A stretch of DNA of 53,272 nt from Prorocentrum cordatum (GCA_963575745.1 CAUYUJ010000331.1:62001-115272); one strand, 5' to 3'; positions 1 to 17,866 are shown, counted from the stretch's first letter. The notes: a model not told the origin generated them from the sequence alone. Program-made: numbers and translations.

Positions 1-2055
1 TCGCGCTCTTGATATACCAGCCGATATCATTGTGCCGATGATTGAACCCATGATTGATAATCAGTGTGTGGCCAGCTTCGAGGGCATCGAGGCATCTTCA
101 GCTGTCTATTGGGACAAATCTATTCGAACGGGAGGAGTGGAGGGGCCGATGATTTTTCTAGCAGTATCTATTGTACTCTGGAGAGATGTGATTGGCAGGC
201 GGAGGCAGGATACGCAGTACGGTATCAAGTTGGAAAATGATGAGCGCATGTTCAACGGTGAGCGTATGACCCACAGTTTCTGGGCAGATAATCTCTTATT
301 GTATGCGACGACTCGCTCTGACCTCGAGCTGATGGTGCGTGACATGAGTATCCCGCTGATGAATGCAGGAATGACCTGCCGTCTTGTGATCCTCTCTCGG
401 GGCCCGAGAGGTGGTCCTGCCGCGTGTTCAGTCGTTTGAGATCCTGGGAGCCACTCTGGAGGAAACCTGGAAGGACCACTCGGATTCAGAGGCCATGCTC
501 CAGAAAGCCCAGAAGGTATTCTTTTGGGAAATCGCCTATTATCGCTGTTCTGGCATTGATTTGGCTGAGGGATTTCCTCGCTATCAAGCTAAAGTGATTG
601 CTGCATTATTATTCAACTGCGAGGGCCGAACGCCCGACTATTCCACCATTGCTGCTGTTCACCCCTTTGAGGGGAGACGCCTGGCGTTGATGTCAGGTCT
701 ACGCAAGCGGAGAACTGAAGGATGGTCTGAGTTTCAACGTAGGCGATACAAAGTTGGACGGCAGAGGTTTGTTGAGCTTGGATTTCGAAGTGCGGTGCAG
801 ATATGGATATTTCGTTGTTGGGATTGGGCCAAGGATGTCTCAGTTGCTGCAAGCATTCGTATGGGGAGGTACACAACACACACAGTGGAGGAGGAGGTGG
901 AGACGGTACCAAATCGGCGTCAGAGAAAAACTCGGGCGATGGCGGCGGCGGCGGCTTCTCAAGTATCCCAGATCTCCCAGATGTCGAGTGGGGGTCGTCG
1001 GCGGACAACGGATGATCAGCCTGCCATACCTGAGGAGTCGAACATCTCACGTGAATGGATGATATCTAGGCTGGCCATGCTACATGGAAGGGGGAGGTGG
1101 ACGGAACATCGGGACACATGTATTCTGGCGTTGCCTGCAAAAGATAGGAAGCATCTCACACGCATGAGCATGGGTGCACCCGCCCGTGGACATACTGTAT
1201 GGGATTGGTGTTTGTGCGATCTCTTTGGTTGTGAGTGGTACCTCTCGTTCGACAGCTCCGCTGGGCCCCGCGAGAAATATTGCAAACATCTGCTGACTGT
1301 GATTGGCATGCAACACTTGTTCGAGTTATTTGTTTTACCCAGGCCACCTGGTGTGAGGCACGCGAAGGCGGAGGAGAAGGTGGAGAGAGAGATGAATGAG
1401 AGGATTCGCAAACGTATTGCCGCTAATTTTGAGAATGAAACGGAGTGGAGGTGTGAAAGTATTGAACGTCTTGGGATGGAAATCTTGGGAGATAGTAAGA
1501 CGGTCGTTAACTGGATGTGTGGTGAGTGGCAGATACGTAACAAGCAGTATGTACGACTGGTGGGAACACTACAAAATACTCTATCGATGCTGTATGGATG
1601 GGGGACTGACCTCACCTGCATCGGGACATAATCTGTATAAACATTTCTTTCGCGAGGGCAATGAACGCGCGGGTAGATTGTCGTGGGAGGCCAGAGGTGG
1701 CCAAACTATTACTCGCTGGTTTGCATATGATCAGTTCCTCAGTACTCGTAAGACTGCTCTCCGCGGTGCATTCGATGGGGGTGTCATTAATGAAGGATGT
1801 GGAGGCAAGTGGCGGCTTCAGATTGGCGTAGTAGGTAGGGGTTCCAGCGTGCAGGTTGATTTTCCCATCTCCTCCTCCTCCTCCTCCTCCTCTTCCTCCT
1901 GCATCAGCTCGCAGAGCTTCCATTGGCACGATGTGGCCGAGGAGGCGATGAGCTTGCCTCCAGGTAGCACGGCAACCTGCTGCGAACTAGCTGCCTGCGC
2001 TGCCCTGACGAGAGCTGCTGCTAAGGTGGCGTGCGCCCTGCTGCGACCTACCTGA
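1..2055 (+). pseudogene. Frameshifted LINE ORF2 (RT C-terminal half, thumb, permuted RNase H)
   Basis: ORFs 32-439, 411-1631 and 1396-2055 are consecutive pieces homologous to the intact ORF2 at 9650-13600: LGDSKTVVNWMCGEW vs QGDSLLVINWLCGKW; HFFREGNERAG vs HSFREWNQKAD; AFDGGV vs GFDGGV; TCCELAA vs TDTELSAA. A (TCC)n expansion lies at ~1869-1900. Confidence 0.88.
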
Positions 2056-2133
2056 GAAGGTGGGGGCTAAGTTTCACTGTTCCGCCGATTCGAATTCGGA
2101 TTCTAGTGGCGGACCGCAAACCGCAAAAAAAAA
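1..2133 (+). mobile_element. 3' part of a decayed non-LTR retrotransposon (LINE family A); runs off the left edge of the window
   Basis: RT motifs DKSIRTGGVEGPMIF and HSFWADNLLLY (281-292), an RTE-like thumb region and RNase H motifs. A short 3' UTR ends GGACCGCAAACCGC plus A9 (2125-2133) and abuts the hairpin target motif. Confidence 0.9.
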
Positions 2134-2164
2134 CCAAGGTTGACGGTTTACCGCCGGCTCCCAG
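2134..2164 (+). mobile_element. 3' half of the hairpin terminus of a Helitron2-like element (target of LINE family A)
   Basis: CCAAGGTTGACGGTTTACCGCCGGCTCCCAG followed by T. An uninterrupted version of the motif lies at ~4896-4953. Confidence 0.85.
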
Positions 2165-4953
2165 TTTTGAATTTTATTGGATTATTCTAAATGAATGTCC
2201 TAGAATTTGACAAGTCGTTAGAAAGCTCGCATTTTTCCCCCCGCATTCGATCTCATTCCCGCTCGCCATCTTAATCTCAGCTCGATCGGGTACATATAAC
2301 TATCAAAAAGCGCTCAGGCGGGATCAGCTGTCGAGAGTCGCTGTCTCTCATAAAAATCAAATGCAAATAATGATTTGCAGCTCTGGTAGCAGGCCGCTCG
2401 CGCGCCATAGAGCTCTGAACACGCAAAGCAGCGCTCGTATAACGACAAAAGAGTGTTCAGCTTGACAACTTCCATAAAGGAATTTGGGTGTTTTTATGCG
2501 GCGTGTTGCAGATGAGCTGTCTTTGGCACATGAATCGTAAGGGAGTCATCAGAAGCGCTAGTCTCAAGTATCTAGATGCCCGACCTGGGTCTGCTACCTG
2601 AGCTGGGTCAGAAAAATTATTTGTGTTCTGCAAGATTGTTCAGATGGTGATGGTTTTCTTGACTAAACTCGCTGCAGATAAGCCAGAGTTGTTTGTCACA
2701 GCGATCGAAAGGAAATATCATTCGAATCTCTAGTCGAATGTATCTAGGTGCCCGAACTCGGTCTGCTTCCAGAGTTGGACGCAAAAAACAATTCGTAATC
2801 TACTAATTATTCCAGAGATAACAATGCCTTTCTTGATCCTCCCCTCCTTCTCTTCCTGCTGCTCCTCCTCCTTAGTCCTCCTTCTCTTCCTCATTCTCCT
2901 CCAGTCCTCCTCCATGGGACCGCGCCCTCGCGCGCGCGGCATGCGAGATTGCCGCGCCCGCATTGTGCGAGGAAGCTCTACGAGTTCCCGGCGGTAACCT
3001 TGGTTCACCGCCGGCTCCCACTTTTGCATTTTTTTCTCGGCTTCACTTCGATATCTTGAAATGTCAACAATTCGTTAGAGCTTTAGTATTTCTTCTCCTC
3101 ATATTCGATATTATTCCCGCTCGCCATCTCAATCTCAGGTCGATCGGGTACCTATTACTGCGAAACAGCATCCAGGCGGGATCGGCTGTTTAGTGTCATA
3201 TTGGCAGGTGCTGTCGGTTTTATGTACTTAACTCCAGCTGTGGGAGAGCTACAGGGCTGGCAGGCACATCTAATCCATCTACAATCGTCAGGTGCGTAAG
3301 TCTCAAGTATCTAGATGTCTGAACTCGGTCTGCTACCAGAGCTGGGTCTGCGAACTATTCGTACTCTGCAGATGAGCTACATAGTTTGGCACAACAATCG
3401 CAAGATAATCATCGGGCGCGCTAGTCTAAAGTATCTAGACGCCCGAACTCGGTCTGCTACCAGAGCTCGGTCCGAAAAGATATTCGTACCCTGCTAAATT
3501 CTTAAGGATGATGGTAACCTTCTTGAGATAACTCGAGCTGCAGATGAGCTACAGAGCTGTTCGGCACAGCAATCGGAAGGAAATCATCAGACGCGCGAGT
3601 CTCAAGTATCTAGATGCCCGAACTCGTTGCGCTTCCAAAGTTGGAACCCGAAAAACTATTCGTAGTCTATTTGTTCAGAGATGACGATGCCTTTCTTTAT
3701 CCTTCGCCTCCTTCTCCTCCTCCTCCGTCCCCCCCATCCTTCCCTTCCTCACCTCCATCTCCTTCCTCCTCACTGCTTCTTCCCTTTCAGTCCTCCTCCA
3801 TGAAACCGCGCCGTCGCGCGCGCGGAATGCGAGATTGCCGCGCCCGCATTGCGCGAGGAAGCTCTTGATTTTCCGAAATTCATTCATTCGTTAGAGCTGC
3901 ATTTCTCCCCCCCATATCAGATCTCATTTCTGCTCCCCATGTCAATCTTAGCTCGATCGGGTACATATTACTGCCAAAAAACACTGAGGCGGGATCGGCC
4001 CTTCAGTGTTCTCTTGGCAGGTGCTGTTTCTGAACTTAACTCGAGCTGCAGATGAGCTACAGAGCTGGTAGGCACACCTAATCGATCTAGAGTCATCAGG
4101 CGCCATCGCTCCAAGTATCTAGATGCCCGTTTTGAGTCTGCTACCAGAGCTGGGCCCGGACAACTATTCGTACTCTGCTAAGTTTCTTGGAGATGATGAT
4201 GAGCTTCTTGATTCAAGTCGAGCACTAGAAGAGCTTCAGAGCTGTTCGGGACAGCAATCGAAAGGACATGAGCAAGCGCGCGAGTCTAAAGTATCTAGAC
4301 GACTGAACTCGGATTGCTCCCGGAGCTGGGTCCGACAAACTATTCCTGCGCTGCTACTGTTTGAGAGATGGTTATGTTTTTTTTATTGACCTCGAGCTAA
4401 ACATTAGAGACAGAGCTGTTTTCACAGCAATCGAACATACATCATTAGAAACGCTAGTCTAAAGTATCTAGATGACGCAATTTGGTCTGCTACTAGAACT
4501 GGGTCTGACAACTATTCGTACTCTGCTAATTTTGTGGGAAGGTCTTGGTAACTTTCTTCAGATAACTCGAGCTGCAGATTAGCTGCGTTCCTGTTTGGCA
4601 CAGCAATCGGAAGGAAATTATATGACGCGCTAGTCTCAAGTATCTAGGTGCCCGAACTCGGTCTGCTTCCAGAGTTGGAACCAAACAACTACTCGTATGC
4701 TGCTAAGTATTCCTGAGATGACGATGCCTTTCTTGATCCCCCCCCCCTTCTCCTCCTTCCGCTCCTCCTCCTCCTCCGCCTCTTCCTGCTCATCCTCGGC
4801 CTCCTTCATCTCCTTTCTCCTCACTTCTGCCTCGCCTCCAGGCCTCCCCCATGAGACCGCCCCCCCCCGAGATTACCGCGCCCGCATTGCACGAGGAAGC
4901 TCTACGAGTTCCCGGCGGTAACCAAGCTTGACGGTTTACCGCCGGCTCCCAGC
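2165..4953 (+). mobile_element. About three older, diverged copies of the long (L) non-autonomous element, with internal ~178-bp repeats and pyrimidine-rich tracts
   Basis: Reverse-complement homology to the L family at 30-53 kb (CCCGCTCGCCATCTTAATCTCAGCTCGATCGGGTAC; GAACTCGGTCTGCTACCAGAGCTGGGTC). 3' termini GGAAGCTCTACGAGTTCCCGGCGGTAA...ACCGCCGGCTCCCA at ~2971-3020 and ~4896-4952. Confidence 0.8.
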
Positions 4954-5465
4954 GCCTTTTTGCTATCCGGGTTTTAGACCACGCGTGTAAAACCCGAAGA
5001 ATAGATTTTGCAAGTTTTGAAGCTCACATTCGAGTACGTTTTCCCTTGTTTTCTGGGCACTGATTTGGTGTGTTGAGTGCTCTACCGGGGCCCCGGCGTT
5101 AACCTGGTTGACTCGTTACCGCCAGCTTCCAGTTGGCCCAGGGCGGACAATGTGATGACCTGGCGTCGGTTTTCCGAAGATTGAGAGAGTTCGCTTTGGG
5201 AACCAGTATTTGTCTCGCGTGAACCTGGTTGACGGTTCACTGCCGGTTTCCAGTACCTCGTAGAGCTCTGCGGCATCGATGAGCTAGAGGAATTCCGGCG
5301 CGGGGCGGAGCTAGTTGGCCCACCCGGCTCGGGCGAACAATGTGGGAAATGAGCAAGAGAAGTTCCGCGCGGGATGGAGCTAGTTGGCCCGCCCGGCCCG
5401 GGCGGGCAACGTGGCAACCTGGGGTCGTTTTTTGAAGATTGTGAGAGATTTGGCAATTCGTTTCG
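4954..5465 (+). mobile_element. Fragments of short (S-type) elements, plus orientation
   Basis: Degenerate hairpin ends at ~5085-5132 and ~5220-5253, then the 5' terminus TACCTCGTAGAGCTCTGCGGCATCGATGAGCTAGAGGAATTCCGGCGCGGGGCGGAGCTAGTTGG from 5254. Confidence 0.7.
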
Positions 5466-5619
5466 GAAATCCAGATTCTTATTCCCTCTAGTCGATCATG
5501 GCGCGCTTCACGGTGCAACTCTCAGGGCTGTAGCTGCAGCGCAGCTCTCGAAAATTAGGAGGGACCGTCGGCGATCGGGATGTGTTTTCCAGATAATGAA
5601 GCGTTCGTGGACTTAACTG

Positions 5620-6039
5620 AAGCAGGAAGCCAGCTACACAGCTGCAGTATTTCCTGCATCTGTCGCAGGTCAAGGCACGTCAGCCTGTCGAATGCTGAGG
5701 TCCCTAGCTGTTGTACTACTATCACAACACTTGGCGGAATCAACTTCGTATAAACACTGAGAAAATACATGTTTGCAGTTTGGAACTGAGTTTGTCGTGA
5801 GATTTCTCGTCGCATTCTGAGCAGTACTCCGCGCGTCAGGGTGTCGCTCGGACTTGTTGTCGCACACTGTGTATTCGGATGCCTTGGCCACCCTGGCTCG
5901 GCACGACTGGCATGGTTCTCTTTTTCGGCCTCGTTTGGAGTGTCTGACGTCACGTGCTCACGTGACGGGGTCCTTGTTAGTGGGACCGTGCAGGCGTGTG
6001 ACGGAGGATGGATGTGGGGCGGTCTTGCCGCTGCGATCC

Positions 6040-6083
<44 letters not shown>

Positions 6084-6243
6084 AGTGCTTTCTCTTGGTG
6101 ATGCCTGCCCCTGCGGGCTCGGCAGGGCCATGTTGCAGATGCCTCAGCCACCCTGGCTCGGCAGTGTTGCTGTTTTTCTTGGCTCGTTTGGAGCCCGCTC
6201 GCTGCCCCATTGGGGCCCGACCGCGAGACCGCAAACCGCAAAA
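5620..6243 (+). mobile_element. Unclassified retroposed segment (SINE-like or LINE 3' UTR) ending in the family A tail; 5' boundary approximate
   Basis: Ends GACCGCAAACCGCAAAA (~6227-6243), matching the family A tail at 2112-2128. No recognisable coding content. Contains (CT)n. Confidence 0.45.
6041..6081. repeat. (CT)n microsatellite
   Basis: About 20 perfect TC units. Confidence 0.97.
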
Positions 6244-8202
6244 CAAATGATCAAAGTTCCTTATCCACAGTCGTGGCGACAGATCCTCATCTCTTTTATG
6301 CCGAAGATTCCAAGGATTCTGAATCTAAAAGATGGTCGTTTGCTTTGTATGCAGAATAAGGCTTCCAGATGGTTCAGCTCCTGTACTGTTCTTCTGGCGG
6401 ATGACCATGTTGAGAGAAACGGTGTTTTTCGTCGTATTGGGTTGTATGGTTTCCAGGAGCATGGACGTACACATGATATAACAGCTAGCCTCAAACACAT
6501 AGGACAACATGCTGCTAACTGGGGGAAAGGGGGAACACCTGGCGAACGCAGACGTCCTTCATGCGTTCGACCACTGCACGGTGGCCAATGTCAGGCGTGG
6601 GTTGGATCATGCTGCTGTGCCTTTGTGTATGTACAGTATGCTCTACTTAATCCCCTGTGTGAGTGTGTCGGTATGTTTGTTCTGATGGAATTGAGGTGTT
6701 GGAGGTGGAGTGGGCAAGTGTATGCGGACGGGAGGGCCTGAGGGCCCCTTGGCTTTCAATCTTATCGTTGCCGCCATGTGGAGTTCTACGATTCGTGAAC
6801 GGGACGTGTTAGGATTAGGTTATCGTATTGAGATTGCTACTTGTTCGACTAATTGTGCTTCGATTATTAATCGTTTCCTTTGGGCAGATAGCTGTTACGT
6901 TCTGGCTCGGAGTCGGGGGGGAACTCACTCGCATGCTACACGGTCTAACTATACATCTACATAAATACGGTATGAGATGGAAGGAGTCCAGTATTCTATA
7001 CATGGTGTTCGGTGCTGTTCTCCCGCGTTACGCTGAAAGGGGAAATACCACAGTCAGCGGACCTTGTTCTCTCGCTGGGGACGGAACGTTCTGGAGTCTA
7101 TTGTTTCAGGAGGGTGACGGAGATGGAGGTACTTGGGGTTCACATAAGCTCATAACTACACGTGAACGAGCACCGAGAGTATCGATCAGGCTCGGAGGGC
7201 CTTCTGGGGACAGGCAGCCTTCTTTCGCTCCACGGCCATTCCGCTGAAGGATAAATACGAGAGATACGCGCAAAGAGTTCAGAGTATCTGGTAATTCGTC
7301 GCAGAAGGTTGTGCTGTATTCTTCTCCCTTGGGAGCTTTGCATATCTTTGAAAGTAAATGTTTGGCTGTCATGTGTCGTTGTGCACGGGGGGAGCAGGAC
7401 GCGTATCAGGAGTGGAATACGAAGAGGTATGAGACAGCAACACAGAAGTTTCATGATGCACAGTATGCGAGTATTGTACATAAGTTCCTCCATGTGCACT
7501 GGCTGTGGGCTATCGACGTTGCTAAATTTGCCCGCAATCTGCTGACGAGTCAGGAGGCGCTCGAGACAAATTCGACACGGGCGTGGAGAGATTCTCGTTT
7601 CTCATGCCTGGCGTTTCGCCGGTTGTGGGATAGAATGAGAACTGACTCAAGGGAGGTTCTCAGATGTTGGAGGAAATGGAAAGAGGCCAGCGCTTCAACT
7701 GGCGCCGGCGGTGAGCCGTCAACCTGGTCACCGCCGGGAACCTCGTGGAGCTACTCCCACGCGTTACGTGCTCAGAGTCGAAAGAGAGAGCTTCTCAAAG
7801 CAATTCTCGAAAAATTGACCATTATTTTTTTTCATGTCGACATGAAGTTGGTTCCCCCAAATGTTCTGATTGTAAATTTGCGCCTACAGAGCTCATATTG
7901 AGACGCAGAGGCCCTCATAGTCTTTTCCAAGTGCGAAAAAACTGCTTTCTCAAAAAAAAATGGCCAAATGTCTCTCACATCTAAGCAAAACCGACCAAAA
8001 GTTGTCACAGTGTCCCTTCTGCTCGGGTCGACCAACTAGCTCCACCCCGCGACGGAAGTCCTCTAGCTCATCGATGCCGAAAAGATCTACGAGGCACGAC
8101 ATCGTGGGGGCAGGAAAGGCTCGGGCTTCGATCTTGGTATCGCTCTTTGGAATCGTTGCACGGTCTATCCTGGTGCGAATCGTTCGTCGGGAGCTTTGAA
8201 CA
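6244..8202 (+). pseudogene. Decayed internal ORF2 fragment of LINE family B, interrupted at 7699-8096 and cut off at 8203 by S elements
   Basis: Translations match the intact ORF2 across several frameshifts: PYPQSWRQILISFMPK, GLYGFQEH, RTGGPEGPLAFNL, FLWADSCYVL, RAWRDSRFSCLAF. After 8096 it resumes with RHRG..QERLGLRSWYRSLES and GSFEH. Confidence 0.92.
7699..8096 (-). mobile_element. Complete 398-bp S1 non-autonomous element (Helitron2-like) inserted in LINE coding DNA without a TSD
   Basis: Starts on + as A|CTGGCGCCGGCGGTGAGCCGTCAACCTGGTCACCGCCGGGAACCTCGTGGAGCT and ends GATCTACGAGGCA. LINE homology is continuous across the two flanks. Confidence 0.85.
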
Positions 8203-9395
8203 CTGGCGCCGGCGGTGAACCTTCAACCTGTCACCCCCGGGAACCTCGTAGAGCTCCTTGTATCCGTAAGAAAGCTCAGGGTCAAAGCATAGAGCTCTGG
8301 GAGCTTTTCTAGAAAAATGTCAAATTGAGATTTTTCGGAGTCAACATCAAGTCGGTTCCGGGAAGTGAACTGGTACTAAAACTGGCTCCAGAGAGCTGAG
8401 CTGCTCAGGGAACAGAGTTTATATGCCAATGCTCGGCGTGAAAATCTGCTTTCTCAAAATCAATTGTCAAATATCCTTCAAATCATAGCAAAACCAACCC
8501 AAAGTTGTCACACTATCCTTTCTGGTCGGGTCGGCCAACTAGCTCCAGCCCGCGCCGGAATTCCTCCAGCTCATTGACTGGCGCCGGCGGTGAACCGTCA
8601 ACCCGGTCACCACCGAGAACCTCGCGGAGCTCCTCCCTCGCGTAAAGTGCTCAGAGTCGAAAGAGAGAGCTTCTCGAGGCATTTCTCGAAAAAATAAAAT
8701 TCATTTTTTTTATGTCGAGATGTAGTTGGTTCCGCCAAGTGTTATGATTGTAAATTCGCGCCTACAGAGCTCATATCAAGACGCAGAGGCCCTCATAGAC
8801 GCTTACAGGTGCGAAACATCTGGTTTCTCAACATGAATGGTCAAATGTCTTTCAAATCTTGGCAAAACCACCCAAAACTTGCCACATTGTCCTTTACTGT
8901 CCGGGTCGACCAACAAGCTCCACCCCGCGCAAAAATTCCTCTAGCTCATCGATGCCGAAGAGCTCTACGAGATACTAGCTCCACCCCGCGCCGGAACTGG
9001 GAGCCGGCGGTAAACCGTCAACCAGGTTACCGCCAGGACCGTCGTAGAGCTCTCCAACGTAATAGTGCTCAGACATCGATTATATAGCTTATGTGAAGAG
9101 TGACCTCAGAATAATTCAATTCAAAATAATATTCAGTGTAGTATGAAGATTTTCCATCAAGTTTTGTGTTTACATTGGAACTCGAGATCTAGACATTGAA
9201 TAGCGCGTCGTAACCTACTACATGTGCAGAGAAAAACTCGAATAATGTATTTTCCTTGAAGCTGTTCTCAAATGCATGAGACCATTATCATTTTTGCAAA
9301 TTAAATCCGACGGCGAACGGTTCCTCCACGTTTTTTCATAGCAATATACGGACTGAGGATTTAACTGGCGCCAGCGGTGAACCGTCAACCTGGTC
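8203..9395 (-). mobile_element. Nested S-type elements (hairpin ends at 8203, 8578, 8997, 9365)
   Basis: Repeated A|CTGG(G)CGCCGGCGGTRAACCGTCAACC...ACCGCC termini and a shared ~350-bp body. Confidence 0.82.
9385..9395. repeat. Left copy of the 11-bp target-site duplication TCAACCTGGTC
   Basis: Identical to 15276-15286. Removing the LINE and one copy restores the hairpin GCGGTGAACCGTCAACCTGGTCACCGCCGGG. Confidence 0.92.
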
Positions 9396-9649
9396 TTTTG
9401 CGTCTTTGCTGGGACCGTCTTGGCCACTGAGGCCAGGTCCAACAAAGTCTCAGGCAAAACAGAGCCTCTTATTCATCACGCAAGCAGTCAGCTCTTATAC
9501 CACACAGCGAAGCTGAAGGAATAAAGAGAATCACATGCCGCAATGACACAATCAAACGCAAAGAACACACAGATAATCGAGGAAGTCAGTGAGCAGCGAA
9601 GCTGCAGGAATATACAAGACACAGAAAAGAAGAAACAATGTGTGTCAAA

Positions 9650-12600
9650 TCACTGCGAATGATCAAAGAAGGTCTGCACAACCTGTGGGAGCACCTCGCA
9701 TATGCGCTCCGCCGCCGATAGCTCCGTATCTGTAACAGTGGCGCTCGGTGGTAGACACCAAGCCGCAAGATACACATCCTTGAAAATGATGTCGGTCCGC
9801 GAGAAGATATACTTGTTTCGCAGACCAATCTGTATCCATGCACCACAGGCACTTCCGCGGCTACAAACTCCCCCATCAAAGCCGGCTTTGATAAGGCAAG
9901 GAATATAACACTGAGATTCAAAGTCGTTGAGGTAAACGAAATCGGCGTACACATGGCCCTGACGGGCCTGATGGGTCAGTAAGTCTGCTTTCTGGTTCCA
10001 TTCCCGAAACGAATGAGAGAAGAAGTCACGGCCGGCCTCTGGAGGCCTCACCAAGTAAGTTTCCTGCATTTCGTCCAACTTATTAATCAGAGTATCCACC
10101 CTTTTCTGATATACCTGAGCTAATACTTTCCATTTCCCGCAGAGCCAGTTAATAACAAGCAGTGAGTCCCCTTGGATGTCCAGTGGTATCCCATCTGTAT
10201 CGAGGTCCCACTGTGTACAACGCATATTATGCAACGCAATACGTTTGCTGAGGCGATCCCTATATGCTGGTGTATCCTCCCGATCCTGACCGATATGAAC
10301 CCCTCCATCCTCATCCAAGTTCAAGAATACAGGCACCCCTGAGGACGCCAACCCTTTACACTTCTTTTGGAAGTACTTCAACATAGCACTAGAACAAACA
10401 TTAGCAGCGAAGTCCATGAAATGCTCAAAACTTCCAGCAAAGAACTCCCACCAGGATAAACCGTAAAACGATTCCAATGAATAATACCACGGACGGAGTC
10501 CGACGCTCTCCTGTCCCCCCCGATGCCTTTTCATAGAGCTGGCCTCCTTCCAGTTTCCCCAACATCTGAGAGCCTCACTTGGATCCGTCCTCATTCTATC
10601 CCACAGTCGGCCAAACGCCAGACATGAGAAACGAGAATCTCTCCAAGCTCTCATCGAGTTCGCCTCCAGCTCCCCCCGATCTGTGATCAGCCTGTGTGCA
10701 AAGTCCTGGATGTCAATTGCCCATATCCAATGCACTCTGAGAAACTTCTGCACAATGCCCACGAAGTGAGCATCATGAAATTTTTGTCTCGCACGTTCAT
10801 ACCTCCTCGTATTCCATTCCTGGTAACTTTCCCCCTCCCTCCGTATACAGCGAGACATTACAGACAGGCACTTGCCCTCAAAGATATGAAGGGCGCTCAA
10901 TGAACTTGAATCGACCGTGCATCCTTCCGCCGCGTAGAGCACAATACTCTGAACTCTCTGAGCATACCTCTCATACTTATCTTTCAACGGGATGGCCGTG
11001 GAGCGGAAGAAGGTCGCCTGCCCCCAGAAGGCCCTGCGAGCACAGTCAATACGAGCGTCCAAATCATGATGTTCATTCACATGTAGTTCAGAACAAATAT
11101 AAGCCCCCAGCACCTCCATCTCCGTCGTCCTTCTAAATCGATACACTCCAGACGCCTCCGACCCCACCGAGAGAGCAAGATCAGCAGTGTGAAGTATTTC
11201 CCCTTCCACATCTCGCGGCGGCTCGACCCCGAACACCATATACAATAGGCTGGATTCCTTCCATCTCATTCCATAATCATGTAACTGTGTAGTTAGACCG
11301 TGTAACATGCGTGTGAGTTCCTCTCGACTCCGAGCCAATACATAACAGTTGTCAGCCCAAAGGAAATGATTAATAATCGAAACACAGCTAGTCGAGCCAG
11401 TCACATACTCAATACGATAACCTAGTCCTAGTACGTCCCATTCTCGAATCGTGGAGCCCCACATAGCAGCAACGATGAGATTGAAGGCCAACGGTCCCTC
11501 GGGCCCTCCCGTCCGAATACATTTGTCCCACCTAACCTCCACCACCTCAATCCCATCATAATAGACAGTGCCTACACATTCGCACAAGGGGTCAAGTAGA
11601 GCATACTGTAGGTAAAGGGGTACATCCGCATGATCCAACCCGCGCCTGACATTGGCCACCGTGCAGTGATCGAACGCCTGAAGGACATCAGCGTTCGCCA
11701 AGTGTGCCGTTTCCCCTTTTCCCCATTGTGCAGCATGTTGACCTATGTGTTTGATGCTAGCCGTGATTTCGTGTGTACGACGGTGTTCCTGGAAACCATA
11801 CAACCCAATATGACGAAACACTCCTTTTCTTTCAATATGACCCTCAACCAAGAGAACAACACAGGAACTGAACCATCTCGAAACAGCATTCTGCATACAC
11901 AGCAAACGTCCGTCTTTTAACTTAGTGATCCCTGGAGTTTTTGGCATAAAAGAGACGAGAATCTCACGCCACGACTGAGGATACGGAATCGTGAGCTTGA
12001 TGATTTTATCGAACAACTTCTGGATCGCTCTGAGAGCACACCACGGCAAGCTCCTTAGAATCTCGCACGGTATCCCGTCTGGCCCAGTAGCCCTCTGGGT
12101 CTTCAGCCGAGCTCGTGCTCTGAGAAGCAGCGCCATACTAATTCCCACAACTGATGTGGAACGTATCTCATGTACAGCCCTCATCCTGATCTCCTCCATC
12201 ATACTGTTGGTGGAATTGCGTATCTCTTCGGACGACACCTTGCAACGAACGAACTTGTCGAGCTCCTCCTTCCACTCCTCACGGTCCTCCGTCTCCCTCC
12301 CATCCACCACTAAATGTTTGATAGTATATCTGACCTTTCTTTTTGTTGGGGGACATCTGCACATAATCATATCACGTCGATAACCTCTGCGTAGACGATT
12401 AGCCTCATTCTTTAACCTCCTCAACCTCTCCACTTCCTCCTTCGGACACATCTTAACCTCCTCCTCCGCTCTTGTGAGCTGCACCGGCCTGGACGGCTCT
12501 CTCTGTCTTCTCGCACCCGTGGTGGAGTAGTCCACCGTCGGTGACAAGTACGCCTCCAGCATAGTACTCTCCAGACCCTGTGGACAGGTCACAGACGGAC

Positions 12601-13600
12601 ACCTTGAAAAGGCAGCACCGCCTAGATACGAATCCACATGCTGTCGAGCCTGATGCTCATCAGCCCAAGTCGAACACTTGTATCCGACCAGAGACGGCCT
12701 AGACTTCTGACCAGGCTGGGGGTCAGGGCGACGAACAATCACGTTCCCAGGGTCAGTGAAACTCGCCGTGATGATTGCGTGATCGGATAATCTACTGAAC
12801 TGCTTCTTCCCACCCCTCTTGAAACACCACTTCACCTCCAGATCCGAGAACTCCCAACGGTGAGGGACCATTAGGTAATCCAGGACCCTCTTCGAAGTCA
12901 GAAACTTGTTCTCCCCCCACGACTCCCAGGTATGCCTCCTAGTACAGAAAGTGTTGGCGGCCTTCAGTCCATGCGATTCCATGAACTCTAACAGCAGCTC
13001 CTTCAGCCTCCTCCTCCGACTCCTCCTTTCAATCTGCTGTGTACCGTCTCCTCCTCTCTCCCACCTTCTGTCCGTACGAGTACCTTCCTTTCCAGTAGCC
13101 TCATACTCCTCCCCATTATACGTAAATCTGCATCCAGGCGGAATCTCCACGTTTGCATCTAGCAGAACACAAAAGCTGGCCTGAGGAAACTTAGTGCGGA
13201 GAACATTGCGAGCACGACCGATCTGCTCATATACCTCCGCAGCAATCTCAACACAATCCTCCACATGAGGGTCTGGCAAATACGCTGACACAATAATGAG
13301 TGGTGACTTCTCTGACCCAAAGACACCGATAACGAACCTCGTGAAACAAGTGAAAAACATACGGACGGCAGCCGCCCAAGATCTGTCGAAGATGAGAGCT
13401 GCCTTACTACACGAACTAGTTTTGATGCGCCACCCCAAGCGTTCAAATTCCCCGTGCACTAGGTATTGAGTTTCCTGACATGCAAAGAGCCCACCACATG
13501 CCCTCATATGATGGAGAATCTCAGCACATTTGAAATGAGCCTCCCCTGCTTTGTTCAGGTTCCAGCTCGCTAAGCGTATGCCTCGGACGAGGCGCCGCAA
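9650..13600 (-). CDS. LINE ORF2: APE endonuclease, reverse transcriptase and C-terminal RNase H-like domain (1316 aa); no ATG ahead of the first APE motif
   Basis: APE: SWNL, CQET, SAYLP, LDAN, HTW, LDYL, SDH. RT: ATGPDGIP, YGFQ, ADVLQAFD, IRTGGPEGPLAFNL, FLWADN, EVLG. Thumb: RIDCARRAFW, VQSIVLYAAEG. RNase H: GDS, HSFREWNQKAD, FDGG, TEL. Confidence 0.95.
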   Translation of the reverse strand: MRRLVRGIRLASWNLNKAGEAHFKCAEILHHMRACGGLFACQETQYLVHGEFERLGWRIKTSSCSKAALIFDRSWAAAVRMFFTCFTRFVIGVFGSEKSPLIIVSAYLPDPHVEDCVEIAAEVYEQIGRARNVLRTKFPQASFCVLLDANVEIPPGCRFTYNGEEYEATGKEGTRTDRRWERGGDGTQQIERRSRRRRLKELLLEFMESHGLKAANTFCTRRHTWESWGENKFLTSKRVLDYLMVPHRWEFSDLEVKWCFKRGGKKQFSRLSDHAIITASFTDPGNVIVRRPDPQPGQKSRPSLVGYKCSTWADEHQARQHVDSYLGGAAFSRCPSVTCPQGLESTMLEAYLSPTVDYSTTGARRQREPSRPVQLTRAEEEVKMCPKEEVERLRRLKNEANRLRRGYRRDMIMCRCPPTKRKVRYTIKHLVVDGRETEDREEWKEELDKFVRCKVSSEEIRNSTNSMMEEIRMRAVHEIRSTSVVGISMALLLRARARLKTQRATGPDGIPCEILRSLPWCALRAIQKLFDKIIKLTIPYPQSWREILVSFMPKTPGITKLKDGRLLCMQNAVSRWFSSCVVLLVEGHIERKGVFRHIGLYGFQEHRRTHEITASIKHIGQHAAQWGKGETAHLANADVLQAFDHCTVANVRRGLDHADVPLYLQYALLDPLCECVGTVYYDGIEVVEVRWDKCIRTGGPEGPLAFNLIVAAMWGSTIREWDVLGLGYRIEYVTGSTSCVSIINHFLWADNCYVLARSREELTRMLHGLTTQLHDYGMRWKESSLLYMVFGVEPPRDVEGEILHTADLALSVGSEASGVYRFRRTTEMEVLGAYICSELHVNEHHDLDARIDCARRAFWGQATFFRSTAIPLKDKYERYAQRVQSIVLYAAEGCTVDSSSLSALHIFEGKCLSVMSRCIRREGESYQEWNTRRYERARQKFHDAHFVGIVQKFLRVHWIWAIDIQDFAHRLITDRGELEANSMRAWRDSRFSCLAFGRLWDRMRTDPSEALRCWGNWKEASSMKRHRGGQESVGLRPWYYSLESFYGLSWWEFFAGSFEHFMDFAANVCSSAMLKYFQKKCKGLASSGVPVFLNLDEDGGVHIGQDREDTPAYRDRLSKRIALHNMRCTQWDLDTDGIPLDIQGDSLLVINWLCGKWKVLAQVYQKRVDTLINKLDEMQETYLVRPPEAGRDFFSHSFREWNQKADLLTHQARQGHVYADFVYLNDFESQCYIPCLIKAGFDGGVCSRGSACGAWIQIGLRNKYIFSRTDIIFKDVYLAAWCLPPSATVTDTELSAAERICEVLPQVVQTFFDHSQ

Positions 13601-13603
13601 ACG

Positions 13604-15001
13604 TCACTGCCTACGATTCACTTCCTGAAGTATATCATTCATGGGAACCTTCAGCGCCGGATAAAAAGAAACAATACGAGCCCATGCATCAGCATGAAGA
13701 ACCCAAGCCCCTGTGGTATTCGTATACGTCGCAAAACAGACGGGTCGGAAATTCGTAACAGCTTGAGTCCAAATCTGACTTCTCGGTGGCCCCACCTCCC
13801 CACGGATCTCGATTTGAACATGAGCCGAGGTCATACTACGCCAAGTCCCACAGAAACGAGCAACCGCTTTCACATGATCACGCTTCCAGGGTGCACACTC
13901 CACTAACGTACGAATCTTTCTGGGATCGATTGGCGTGTCCATATCATGAGTGAGAACATCGGCATCTGGATACGTATAACCTGGGGGCGGGGCAATGCGG
14001 TCGGCGGGTTCCTTACAGACCATATCCATCCATTTCTTTATTCTCCAAAGAGTGTCCCGTGGTGTCCCTTCTTTGAAACCGACCTTCACACTGCCGTACA
14101 TATATCTTCCTCCGTTTAAACGTTCAGTTTTATCTTTATCGTAAGCATTCCTTTCCTCCCCCTGAAGTGTCCCAATCATATTAGATATTAACTGTGCCGC
14201 ATCTGCCCAGGGTATCATTTGATTTCCCCGATTTACTTGATTCGACCAATCCGTAACCCACCCTTTCAGCTCGAGATAAGTTGGTGTGAACTGGCTCGAT
14301 CGCTCCTGTTGCACGCGAGGGAACGAACCTCCACCACCACCAGAGGAGCCACCAGGGCCCACACTAGTCGAAACCGAAGCTGCAGGAGATCCAGCCAAAA
14401 TTTGCTTAACCTGTTTCTCCAAAATCTCTGTCCGTGCATCTGATTTGTCCATTCTCTCCGTATGCAACTTGAGTGTGTCATCCACTCTTTTGATGTCCGT
14501 CTTCGTCGATTGAACAACATGGATGAGATCCTCATGGGCATCCTCCGTTTTCCAAACATGCTTCATCATCATCTGTTTGAATGGATCCTTCTCCTTTTCT
14601 AACATCACTTTCCTCTCCTCCTCAATCTCTGTTCCACGTGCACGTTTGGATCGAGTCTCACCATCCCCAGTCATCGCGGCATCCGCCGCTGCTGCAACAT
14701 GAGTCATATCTTCAAGAATATTACCGTTCAATCCGTATTTATCTAACCAGCTCCTATCGTCCTCACGTTGACGTTTGTTTGATGCTGCCTCCAGTGCCTG
14801 CAGATCTTTCTGATCCCACGGCTGGTATTCCTCAAGGTAATCAAAGTTGACTCTCTCGTCCTGGTAGTCTTCTGTGGGTATGTCCAGATTCCTTTGACGC
14901 CGAAACCACTCCTCAGTACTTTCACCCCAATGCTCGAGTCCTATCTCTCTCCTCAATGCCAGCTGAGCCTCAGGACTGTCGGACGACGTGATTGTCAACA
15001 A
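13604..15001 (-). CDS. LINE ORF1, probable coiled-coil nucleic-acid chaperone; start uncertain (TTG at 15001, first ATG at 14707)
   Basis: 465 open codons directly upstream of ORF2 and inside the TSD-bounded unit. Heptad-like segment DIKRVDDTLKLHTERMDKSDARTEILEKQVKQIL, a Gly/Ser linker, then a globular-looking region. Function is inferred from position. Confidence 0.8.
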   Translation of the reverse strand: MLTITSSDSPEAQLALRREIGLEHWGESTEEWFRRQRNLDIPTEDYQDERVNFDYLEEYQPWDQKDLQALEAASNKRQREDDRSWLDKYGLNGNILEDMTHVAAAADAAMTGDGETRSKRARGTEIEEERKVMLEKEKDPFKQMMMKHVWKTEDAHEDLIHVVQSTKTDIKRVDDTLKLHTERMDKSDARTEILEKQVKQILAGSPAASVSTSVGPGGSSGGGGGSFPRVQQERSSQFTPTYLELKGWVTDWSNQVNRGNQMIPWADAAQLISNMIGTLQGEERNAYDKDKTERLNGGRYMYGSVKVGFKEGTPRDTLWRIKKWMDMVCKEPADRIAPPPGYTYPDADVLTHDMDTPIDPRKIRTLVECAPWKRDHVKAVARFCGTWRSMTSAHVQIEIRGEVGPPRSQIWTQAVTNFRPVCFATYTNTTGAWVLHADAWARIVSFYPALKVPMNDILQEVNRRQ

Positions 15002-15257
15002 CGGTCAACAAGGACACGTCGAACGACGTGATAGTCAGTAACTACCACCCGTTCAATAAGAGGTAAAGAATGCTGACAGACAATGAACAGCAGTGCAGCA
15101 CACCAGAGAATCTCAATACCACGAAGAAGAATATAGCGTACAATACAAGAGATGTAGAGTAGCAGACAAAAACCTCGAGGGAACCCAGGCAAGCCGGGCT
15201 CACACCCCGAGGCCAGGGCTCGCTAGAACGTCTGGAGGTTCCCCAGGCAGAGACGTT

Positions 15258-15265
15258 CTTGAGCC
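15258..15265 (-). other. Possible relic of the dinoflagellate spliced leader (GGCTCAAG) at the LINE 5' end
   Basis: The minus strand reads AGAACGTCTC-GGCTCAAG-AACGTCTC. GGCTCAAG is the 3' end of DinoSL (DCCGTAGCCATTTTGGCTCAAG). Only 8 nt, but in the expected place and orientation. Confidence 0.55.
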
Positions 15266-15275
15266 GAGACGTTCT

Positions 15276-15652
15276 TCAACCTGGTCACCGCCGGGAAACT
15301 CGTAGAGCTCCTTTCACGCGTGAGAGAGCTCAGAGTCGAAAGAGAGAGCTGCTCGAGGCATTTCTCAAAAATTGAACATTGATTTTTTTCATGTCGAAAT
15401 GAAGTTGGTTGCTCCAAGTGTTTCGGTCGTAAAAGTGCGCCTAGAGAGCTCATATTAAGACGCAGAAGCTCGCATAACCTTTTACAGGTGCGAAAAATCT
15501 GCTTTCTCAAAATAAATGGTCAAATATCCTTCAAATATTCGCAAAACCACCCAAAAGTTGCCACTTTGTCCTTTCGGGTCGGGTCGACCAACTAGCTCCA
15601 TCCCGCGCCGGAATTCCTCTCGCTCATCGCTGCCGAAGAGAACTACGAGGCA
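15276..15652 (-). mobile_element. Remainder of the S1 element hosting the LINE (includes the right TSD 15276-15286)
   Basis: TCAACCTGGTCACCGCCGGGAAACTCGTAGAGCTC, the S1 body and the terminus GAACTACGAGGCA. Confidence 0.88.
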
Positions 15653-17109: not shown

Positions 17110-17439
17110 AAGACACAAAGACGATGACTAAATGGTTCTATTCGACCCGTCTTGAAACGCGGACCAAGGAGTCTAACATATGTGCGAGTCCACGGGTGGT
17201 AAACCTGCTGGCGCAGTGAAAGCGACTGCTGGGATCTTTGCACCAGCAACCGACCAATCAATTGAGAGAGGTTTGAGTATGAGCATATCTGTTAGGACCC
17301 GAAAGATGGTGAACTATGCCTGAGAAGGGCAAACTCAAGGGAAACTCTGATGGAGGCTCGTAGCGATACTGACGTGCAAATCGTTCGTCATACTTGGGTA
17401 TAGGGGCGAAAGACTAATCGAACCATCTAGTAGCTGGTC

Positions 17440-17470
<31 letters not shown>

Positions 17471-17509
17471 TTGAACAGTTTTATCAGGTAAAGCGAATGA
17501 TTAGAGGCA
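17110..17509 (+). rRNA. Isolated fragment (pseudogene) of nuclear LSU/28S rRNA, D2 end through D3, dinoflagellate-like
   Basis: GACCCGTCTTGAAAC(G)CGGACCAAGGAGTCTAAC, GACCCGAAAGATGGTGAACTATGCCTGA, GGGGCGAAAGACTAATCGAACCATCTAGTAGCTGG, CCCTCAGGATAGCTG and GGTAAAGCGAATGATTAGAGG. Neither flank is rDNA. Confidence 0.93.
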
Positions 17510-17669
17510 GCGCTGGCCGTCAGCAGGAGAAACTCCCGCTCAGCCTTTTCCCGTCGCAGGACTCTCCCGCTCAGTGATTTCCTCCCCAGAGGACTTCCAC
17601 GCCTGGGTTTTTTCCGCCCACACGACTTCTCCCGAAACGAAGAGCTACGCCATAGCTTTATCGGCTTGG

Positions 17670-17866
17670 GACGGGCCAGGCCGGAGGCCTGGCCCTGGCC
17701 GGAGGCCCAGGCCGGAGGCCTGATGGCCGGAGGCCAGGATGGTGGCGGCCGGAGGCCGGTCACCACAGCTCCCGGCGCGCCGGCGACATGCGCGACATGG
17801 CATGTCGCGCGACATGCGCGACATGAGCGACATGGAGAGGCCTGCGAGGCCTGCGAGGCCTGCGAG
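17670..17866. repeat. GC-rich short repeats (GGCCGGAGGCC-like; GCGACATG; GAGGCCTGC x3)
   Basis: Directly visible tandem motifs. Confidence 0.7.

Follow-up and report, generated by a model that had tools for sequence, protein, structure and literature searches.

Can different families of long interspersed nuclear elements (LINEs) share a single nucleotide of another transposon as their insertion site? The question is raised by a stretch of 53,272 bp from the dinoflagellate Prorocentrum cordatum (GCA_963575745.1, CAUYUJ010000331.1:62001-115272), here called the window, with positions counted from its first letter. Two LINE families, which we named A and B, are joined there by their 3' ends to the terminal hairpin of a short repeated element, S. 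The original prediction, made from the sequence alone, had placed both at one hairpin position and in one orientation, in two variants of the hairpin, and this was borne out, for A within the ambiguity of an A-run. We consider it likely that A, B and a third family found in metagenomes form a target-specific LINE lineage with an endonuclease of the apurinic/apyrimidinic (APE) type, and that the hairpin core near the 3' end of S is its target.

The insertion of B can be followed on both sides. These are the features involved, from sequence reading and open reading frames (ORFs):

9396-15275, minus strand: LINE family B, full length, 5880 bp
9396-9399, minus strand: tail AAAA of B
9400-9649, minus strand: 3' untranslated region (UTR) of B
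9650-9652, minus strand: stop codon of B
9653-13603, minus strand: coding sequence of B, 1317 aa
13604-13606, minus strand: in-frame TGA
13607-15004, minus strand: N-terminal ORF of B, 466 aa
15005-15275, minus strand: 5' UTR of B
9364-9395, minus strand: 3' part of the S copy that hosts B, with one copy of the target site duplication (TSD) at 9385-9395 (GACCAGGTTGA in sense), then CGGTTCACCGCTGGCGCCAGT
15276-15286, minus strand: second TSD copy, GACCAGGTTGA in sense
15287-15651, minus strand: 5' part of the host S, with the left stem arm CCCGGCGGT, the 3' subterminal inverted repeat GAGCTCTACGAG (15299-15309) and the S body
near 15638-15650, minus strand: 5' subterminal repeat CCTCGTAGTTCTC of the host S

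Read in the sense of the LINE, the 3' junction of B is ...CAGCAAAGACGCAAAA|GACCAGGTTGA CGGTTCACCGCTGGCGCCAGT and the 5' junction is ...CTCTACGAGTTTCCCGGCGGT GACCAGGTTGA|AGAACGTCTCGG..., where the upstream flank may also be written ...GAGCTCTACGAGTTTCCCGGCGGT GACCAGGTTGA. The TSD GACCAGGTTGA, 11 bp long, is exact at 9385-9395 and 15276-15286. A junction with an 11-bp TSD had been predicted for B and it holds at these corrected coordinates, with B itself at 9396-15275. When the left flank, one TSD copy and the right flank are put together, the result is an ordinary hairpin without interruption, as seen elsewhere in the window, and therefore B was inserted into S and not the reverse.

Family A reaches the hairpin on the other strand:

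1-2131, plus strand: 3' part of LINE family A, frameshifted, cut by the start of the window inside the reverse transcriptase (RT) region (tblastn and sequence reading)
2132-2165, plus strand: right part of an S hairpin and S 3' terminus AACCAAGGTTGACGGTTTACCGCCGGCTCCCAGT, joined to the tail of A; the string is equal to that of uninterrupted copies, e.g. from 4919 onward

Residues 1127-1762 of the B protein match positions 11-1989 of the window in three pieces with 26-29% identity (tblastn), and since the identity is only that high, A and B are separate families rather than copies of one event. The 3' UTR of A ends in ...GGACCGCAAACCGC (...CCGC) and is followed by a run of nine A at 2125-2133, so that the LINE may end anywhere from 2131 to 2133. 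Across the junction, the sequence is ...CCGCAAAAAAAAA CCAAGGTTGACGGTTTACCGCCGGCTCCCAGT, and the uninterrupted copies of the same hairpin variant read GGT AACCAAGG. Taking the last two A as target, the join falls at 2131|2132 and is equal to the position of B, after GGT. Coding sequence of LINE type is limited to three places of the window: 2-1989, 6130-7694 with 8108-8206 (B2, a second copy of family B) and 9662-13942. As the 3' end of B2 is missing, A and B provide the only LINE 3' junctions here, as had been claimed.

The target belongs to a very abundant element. With at most one mismatch, GGTTGACGGT is present in 37 copies in the window, where 2.43 are expected, and none of 100 shuffles reached 37, which confirms that the region is rich in this motif. 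Of these copies, 33 have an intact left arm, two carry a LINE tail, one has an internal deletion and one is a chance match inside B. In the 33 intact copies, GGTTGACGGT is the loop region of the hairpin CCGGCGGT-RA(C)C...GGTT-YACCGCCGG, with GAGCTCTACGAG before it and CGCC(C)AGT after it; beyond the latter, the sequences diverge between copies. The reverse complement of GAGCTCTACGAG, CTCGTAGAGCTC, sits 2-3 nt inside the 5' end of each S unit, and its 3' partner GAGCTCTACGAG is found at 44 nt from the 3' end, directly before the palindrome, which ends 7-8 nt before the terminus ...CGCC(C)AGT. The units are about 400 bp long, and longer where internal tandem repeats of about 177 bp are present.

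This organization resembles the ends of Helitron2 and of Helentron-associated HINEs (DINE-1 type). According to two reports (PMC3627910, PMC4067079), these elements have a 5' subterminal repeat 0-4 nt from the 5' end, a 3' repeat located upstream of the 3' palindrome and 20-60 nt from the end, and a palindrome 8-35 nt from the terminus. S shares with them, as described in the same reports, the layout of subterminal repeats and 3' palindrome and the central tandem repeats seen in many copies; in the one S insertion that can be dated, no TSD is visible. It differs in forming long head-to-tail arrays and in having no Rep/helicase gene in view: 45 of the 96 stop-to-stop ORFs with 110 aa or more in the window were scanned, and none of the 45 had a Rep/helicase Pfam match. 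A high-copy rolling-circle element had been predicted. The copy number stands and the ends of Helitron2/Helentron-HINE type are added to it, and the rolling-circle nature is suggested by these ends only, as no Rep/helicase gene was seen among the ORFs scanned.

Two other S 3' ends, both on the plus strand, were considered as insertions and rejected. The hairpin at 5207-5253, a candidate for a third LINE insertion, has lost the inverted repeat and the left stem arm, apparently through an internal deletion that removed about 30 nt at a GTGAA repeat, and in the one at 2974-3020 the loop core is deleted. Both are decayed copies, not insertions.

How constant the site is can be seen in a set of 77 distinct hairpins, drawn partly from the window and partly from 16 metagenome loci. 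It was obtained from 83 distinct hairpin strings after removal of six (three LINE junctions, one deletion variant, one truncated and one degenerate copy); the loci L003 and L021 do not contribute to the 83. In columns 21-37 (GGTTGACGGTTTACCGC), conservation is 90% or higher except in a single column. The outer stem of 7 bp varies between families yet stays complementary, being perfect in 38 of the 77 hairpins and with one mismatch in 25, and the re-pairing of shuffled arms gave a mean of 12.4 perfect stems and a maximum of 20. Four types of perfect stem were found: CGAGCGG/CCGCTCG, CCGGCGG/CCGCCGG, CGCGCGG/CCGCGCG and CGCCCAG/CTGGGCG. The LINE cut coincides with the exact border of the variable outer stem and the conserved inner part, and the TSD spans the conserved left inner arm plus most of the loop. 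The cut is in the left stem arm, not in the loop, and it is the TSD that reaches into the loop. Since the core is nearly invariant across the 77 hairpins, it makes a stable target for an endonuclease that reads sequence.

Ten of the metagenome loci (L004, L005, L007, L011, L013-L015 and L017-L019), which come from other organisms, show the same type of head-to-tail arrays of short elements, with the hairpin core ACCWGGTTGACGGTTTACC. Their outer stems are different and also complementary, and their termini are different as well (...CATACAT, ...CAAGT). Judging from these sequences, S-like elements with the conserved end signal are a widespread element family.

Could two LINEs meet at this position by coincidence, or by wrong assembly of a region dense in repeats? 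The 37 motif copies in 53 kb would favor an encounter, and repeat arrays are prone to misassembly. Under a simple uniform model, the chance of one insertion in a hairpin and of a second one at the same position and orientation is 7.5e-6, rising to 3.8e-5 with a slack of 2 nt to each side and to 5e-4 if insertions are restricted to S DNA. A chance of 8e-6 to 5e-4 and an exact TSD speak against such an accident, as do the contigs of public runs, which we aligned to positions 1600-9800 and which match mostly S repeats. An independent X1 contig (record 2) crosses the A junction, covering 1909-2157 with 12 differences from the A copy of the window, and other contigs show a junction of B type. We therefore regard coincidence or an assembly artefact as very improbable. 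The X1 contig stops at 2157, which would be compatible with several copies of A whose hairpin variants diverge right after this point; the X8 contig over A stops inside the A-run.

The B-type junction joins 9027, in the AACCTGG-type hairpin of a neighboring S, to the B tail at 9396. Among the matches listed, it is present in two X3 contigs (side of 30 letters) and one X15 contig (side of 23 letters), both runs carrying an organism label, and in none from X8 or X1. The place is the same within 1 nt, as one letter fits either side. A B-type tail on a different hairpin variant at an equal place indicates a separate insertion.

Further junctions were looked for in metagenome contigs of JGI with a pattern that combines an A-run with a hairpin core at a distance of up to 6 nt. 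From 22 loci, 18 are uninterrupted hairpins of related families in other organisms whose left arm contains AAAA, and L003 and L021 have no hairpin context. The remaining two, L016 and L020, are the same sequence in two metagenomes, ...CAAACAAAAAA CCAAGGTTGACGG..., in which an A-run is followed by a hairpin half (CCCGCCCAAACAAAAAA CCAAGGTTGACGGTTTACCGCCGGCTCCCAGT). Upstream of the A-run there is a decayed frame matching residues 1306-1454 of P0003, a full-length homologue of the B ORF, with 36% identity (E 2.7e-8); LTHRAREGD, GLRG.FDGGV and TDAELSALEGLLEAA are common to both. The A and B proteins had no match at E<=1e-3 in any of the 22 loci (tblastn), and the hairpin pattern had none in viral contigs and none in contigs of prokaryote genomes. 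By these protein similarities, L016/L020 is a third LINE lineage at the same hairpin site. Upstream of its decayed LINE C-terminus, L016 also contains an open frame of 452 aa (507-1865, minus strand) that matches no Pfam family and is not similar to A or B; it may be a further gene carried by the LINE or a shifted part of its ORF.

Counting A, B, the 9027/9396 joint and L016/L020, all four junctions lie at the hairpin site, two of them coming from searches or alignments that required a hairpin. A different origin for this agreement would be inheritance. One or more ancestral insertions followed by read-through would have produced progeny that carry the tail and the right half of the hairpin along, and B would be a single true insertion in a motif-dense region. 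Both flanks are indeed available in B only, A and L016 have one and the same right-half variant (...CCGCCGGCTCCCAGT), and the S motif makes up a noticeable share of the region. But A, B and L016 have protein identities of 26-36% or no detectable similarity, and being different lineages, each would need its own founding insertion at that nucleotide. B-type tails are found on two hairpin variants, and the piece derived from the hairpin always stops precisely at the S terminus, with differing sequence beyond it. For these reasons inheritance seems to us a rather improbable origin of the junctions.

The B protein contains the following domains:

12749-13576, minus strand: APE-type endonuclease domain of B, about residues 10-285 of the 1317-aa ORF
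11258-11803, minus strand: RT core of B (Pfam RVT_1, E 4.9e-6, 26.8 bits, cut-off 29.6)
9653-10336, minus strand: C-terminal domain of the B ORF, 228 aa, conserved in all full-length relatives and closing a stretch of more than 400 aa that follows the RT

The 466-aa N-terminal ORF and the 1317-aa ORF are in the same frame, separated by a single TGA (13604-13606, minus strand). A relative, P0007 (74% identity over 273 aa), has W at the position of this TGA and reads through. The B family thus probably encodes one polyprotein of about 1780 aa, this copy having one stop that is either disabling or read through.

In the endonuclease, the motifs WNLN, QE, YLPD, DANVE, NTF, LDY and SDHA are recovered in the alignment, with the catalytic N, QE, D.N and SDH. 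The B sequence had no Pfam match in the endonuclease/exonuclease/phosphatase family, and its homologues P0029 (23.6 bits, cut-off 24.5) and P0132 (24.6 bits) match Exo_endo_phos. An AlphaFold2 (AF2) model of the domain has a predicted local distance difference test (pLDDT) value of 70 and a predicted template modeling score (pTM) of 0.75. Its top Foldseek matches are the endonuclease (EN) of R1Bm (6a42/2ei9, E 4e-8 to 5e-8, TM-score 0.53-0.71) and that of TRAS1 (1wdu, E 8e-8), the two site-specific LINE endonucleases with a solved structure, which lead APE1 and the L1 EN only marginally; about 50 chains of LINE and cellular AP endonucleases are better than E 1e-6. The sequence identity to R1Bm and TRAS1 is only 16%, and a profile of the B endonuclease found no useful match among PDB sequences. 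By its motifs, the Pfam matches of its homologues and the fold of the model, the domain is of APE type with the catalytic motifs in place, as the original prediction had it.

The RT is recognizable and diverged. Homologues P0002 and P0003, with 33-36% identity to B (33% for P0003), pass the RVT_1 cut-off, and B itself has a weak match to PDB 8c8j ("RNA-directed DNA polymerase", E 0.016). A full HMMER search gave 792 relatives of B at E<=1e-3, a word search gave one close relative, and the 1317-aa ORF is very divergent from curated families. An hhalign comparison of B with P0130 aligned the RT only. In the C-terminal domain, GDS, E.N..AD and FDGG are invariant in six relatives, in an order unlike that of RNase H, a fold that LINEs such as I, Tad and Ingi have in their C-terminal part. 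Its AF2 model has a pLDDT of 76.5, and neither Foldseek nor VIA-align matched it to RNase H (best Z 5.0, with no clear solved fold). Elements of the RTE clade have a compact single ORF with endonuclease and RT and lack both a long N-terminal region and a C-terminal domain. The label "RTE-like" given earlier to this lineage finds no support in B, which has a 466-aa in-frame N-terminal region and more than 400 aa behind the RT, including the conserved domain. As LINE features, there are the endonuclease domain, the RT downstream of it, the TSD with A-rich tails (AAAA in B, nine A in A) and the 5'-truncated copy B2.

At the other end of B, its first 26 nt (15250-15275, minus strand) read AGAACGTC TCGGCTCAAG AACGTCTCTGCC, with one 8-nt start of the body on both sides of a 10-mer. 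Nine of the 10 letters agree with the dinoflagellate spliced leader at its 3' end. About 4.6 chance matches per window are expected for a 10-mer when one mismatch is allowed, and this leader-like one is located at the 5' end of B.

How would such an element arrive at the border of the hairpin core? Directly observed are the TSD and the junctions, how far the families have diverged, the fold of the APE domain and how well the core is conserved. On this basis, we suggest that the endonuclease domain would recognize the inner hairpin core, approximately RACC(W/AA)GGTTGACGGTT, and nick the bottom strand opposite ...CGGCGGT|RACC.... The 3' end released there would then prime reverse transcription at the short ...CGCAAAA tail of the RNA, and a cut in the top strand 11 bp further on (GGTTGA|CGG) would give rise to the 11-bp TSD. 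The insertion would part the 3' inverted repeat and left stem arm of S from the right arm and the terminus, and an S end split in this way should be disabled.

The shape of the DNA, rather than its sequence, could also guide the LINEs. The palindrome may extrude as a cruciform, stall replication, or be nicked by a rolling-circle transposase or repair enzymes, and any LINE would use the break. The target has a stem of 10-12 bp and a predicted DNA folding energy of -12 to -14 kcal/mol, the site lies within the stem, and the use of one site by three deeply divergent LINE lineages might be due to the DNA rather than to each enzyme. Against this, the clean 11-bp TSD and the short, defined tail of B point to two staggered enzyme cuts, the four junctions, which involve three hairpin variants, agree in position apart from the ambiguity of the A-run, and the LINE encodes an endonuclease with all catalytic motifs. 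We consider a structure-driven origin unlikely.

Several points also weigh against an endonuclease that reads the core. We infer the reading step itself, as well as which nick comes first and what happens to S. The position of the A junction is ambiguous by a few bases within the A-run, and the 5' end of A lies beyond the window, which confines the TSD check to B. The 9027/9396 joint is weak, with 80% likeness and sides of 23-30 letters. As A, L016 and this joint come without their 5' side, 3' transduction is possible for each of them singly. In the window, no LINE is joined to the most frequent hairpin variant, AAGAAAGG. A scan of JGI metagenome contigs with the C-terminal 288 aa of B, blind to the flanks, gave 94 pattern matches, none of them confirmed by tblastn. 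The scan that found L016/L020 required the hairpin and can therefore return positives only, so it adds one independent event and no denominator.

The relation between the LINEs and S goes in both directions, as is seen in the remaining features of the window:

6130-8206, plus strand: B2, second copy of family B, 5'-truncated, without 3' end, interrupted by S, with 77% nucleotide identity to B (blastn, tblastn; covered by homologous protein at 6130-7694)
7695-8099, minus strand: complete S element of about 405 bp inside B2, TSD not visible
27148-53272, minus strand: head-to-tail array of S type in a single orientation, many units with internal tandem repeats of about 177 bp, each ending in the conserved hairpin

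S elements inside a copy of the B family had been reported at 7699 and 8203, and both are found, one as the element at 7695-8099 and the other as an S array that begins at 8203 and also interrupts B2. Elements of Helitron2/Helentron-HINE type insert without a TSD, at T-rich or TT sites. Comparing the first S with the empty site in B, the flanks are not repeated and there is a T on either side; B and B2 are not quite equal at this point, with a few differing bases.

Apart from the transposons, an isolated fragment of large subunit (LSU) ribosomal RNA lies at 17164-17775 on the plus strand (Rfam LSU_rRNA_eukarya, model positions 666-1454, 273 bits). The approximately 7 kb that follow have 64-70% G+C and long open frames on both strands, with no Pfam match.

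We put forward, tentatively, a wider picture that may or may not hold. An old and diversified LINE clade of dinoflagellate-type genomes could be a specialized parasite of Helitron2/HINE-like elements. Its endonuclease would read a stretch that the host transposon cannot change, as it is needed by the replication of the transposon, and each insertion would kill one end. An arms race would result, in which S inserts back into the LINEs, and specificity would have been kept down to about 25-35% protein identity. A LINE lineage aimed at the functional hairpin of a rolling-circle transposon would by itself represent a new class of LINE target, and an example of one genomic parasite that has specialized on another and disables it, in genomes whose repeat biology is poorly known. 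A defined DNA target of about 16 conserved bases and several naturally diverged endonucleases that apparently read it would also be a convenient system for studying the sequence specificity of APE endonucleases. Target-specific LINEs are natural models for site-directed DNA insertion, and their known targets are mostly host repeats: rDNA, telomeres, snRNA, tRNA and spliced-leader genes, and microsatellites. Full-text literature searches, judged by listings and abstracts and not extending to Repbase reports or subscription journals, showed no paper on LINEs that target Helitron-type hairpins.

Among known systems, R1Bm and TRAS1 of Bombyx mori (R1 clade), which insert in 28S rDNA and in telomere repeats, respectively, have the endonucleases that are the top structural matches of the one in B. 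They share with B the logic of a multicopy and dispensable target, and differ in that their targets are host repeats and that of B is a transposon; the RVT_1 match of B is weak. Transposons do appear in a list of LINE targets (PMC4640811). Tx1L of Xenopus laevis (Tx1 clade) is an APE LINE with a highly sequence-specific endonuclease whose target is inside the multicopy transposon Tx1D (PMC1950540). Like B, it is an APE-type LINE located inside another multicopy transposon. Here, the target is not Tx1D, and consists of the subterminal hairpin of the Helitron2/HINE-like S, used by at least three deeply diverged lineages. Tx1L in Tx1D is the closest precedent, and what would be new in the present case is the hairpin of a rolling-circle element as target, the host group, and one site common to lineages with about 25-35% identity.

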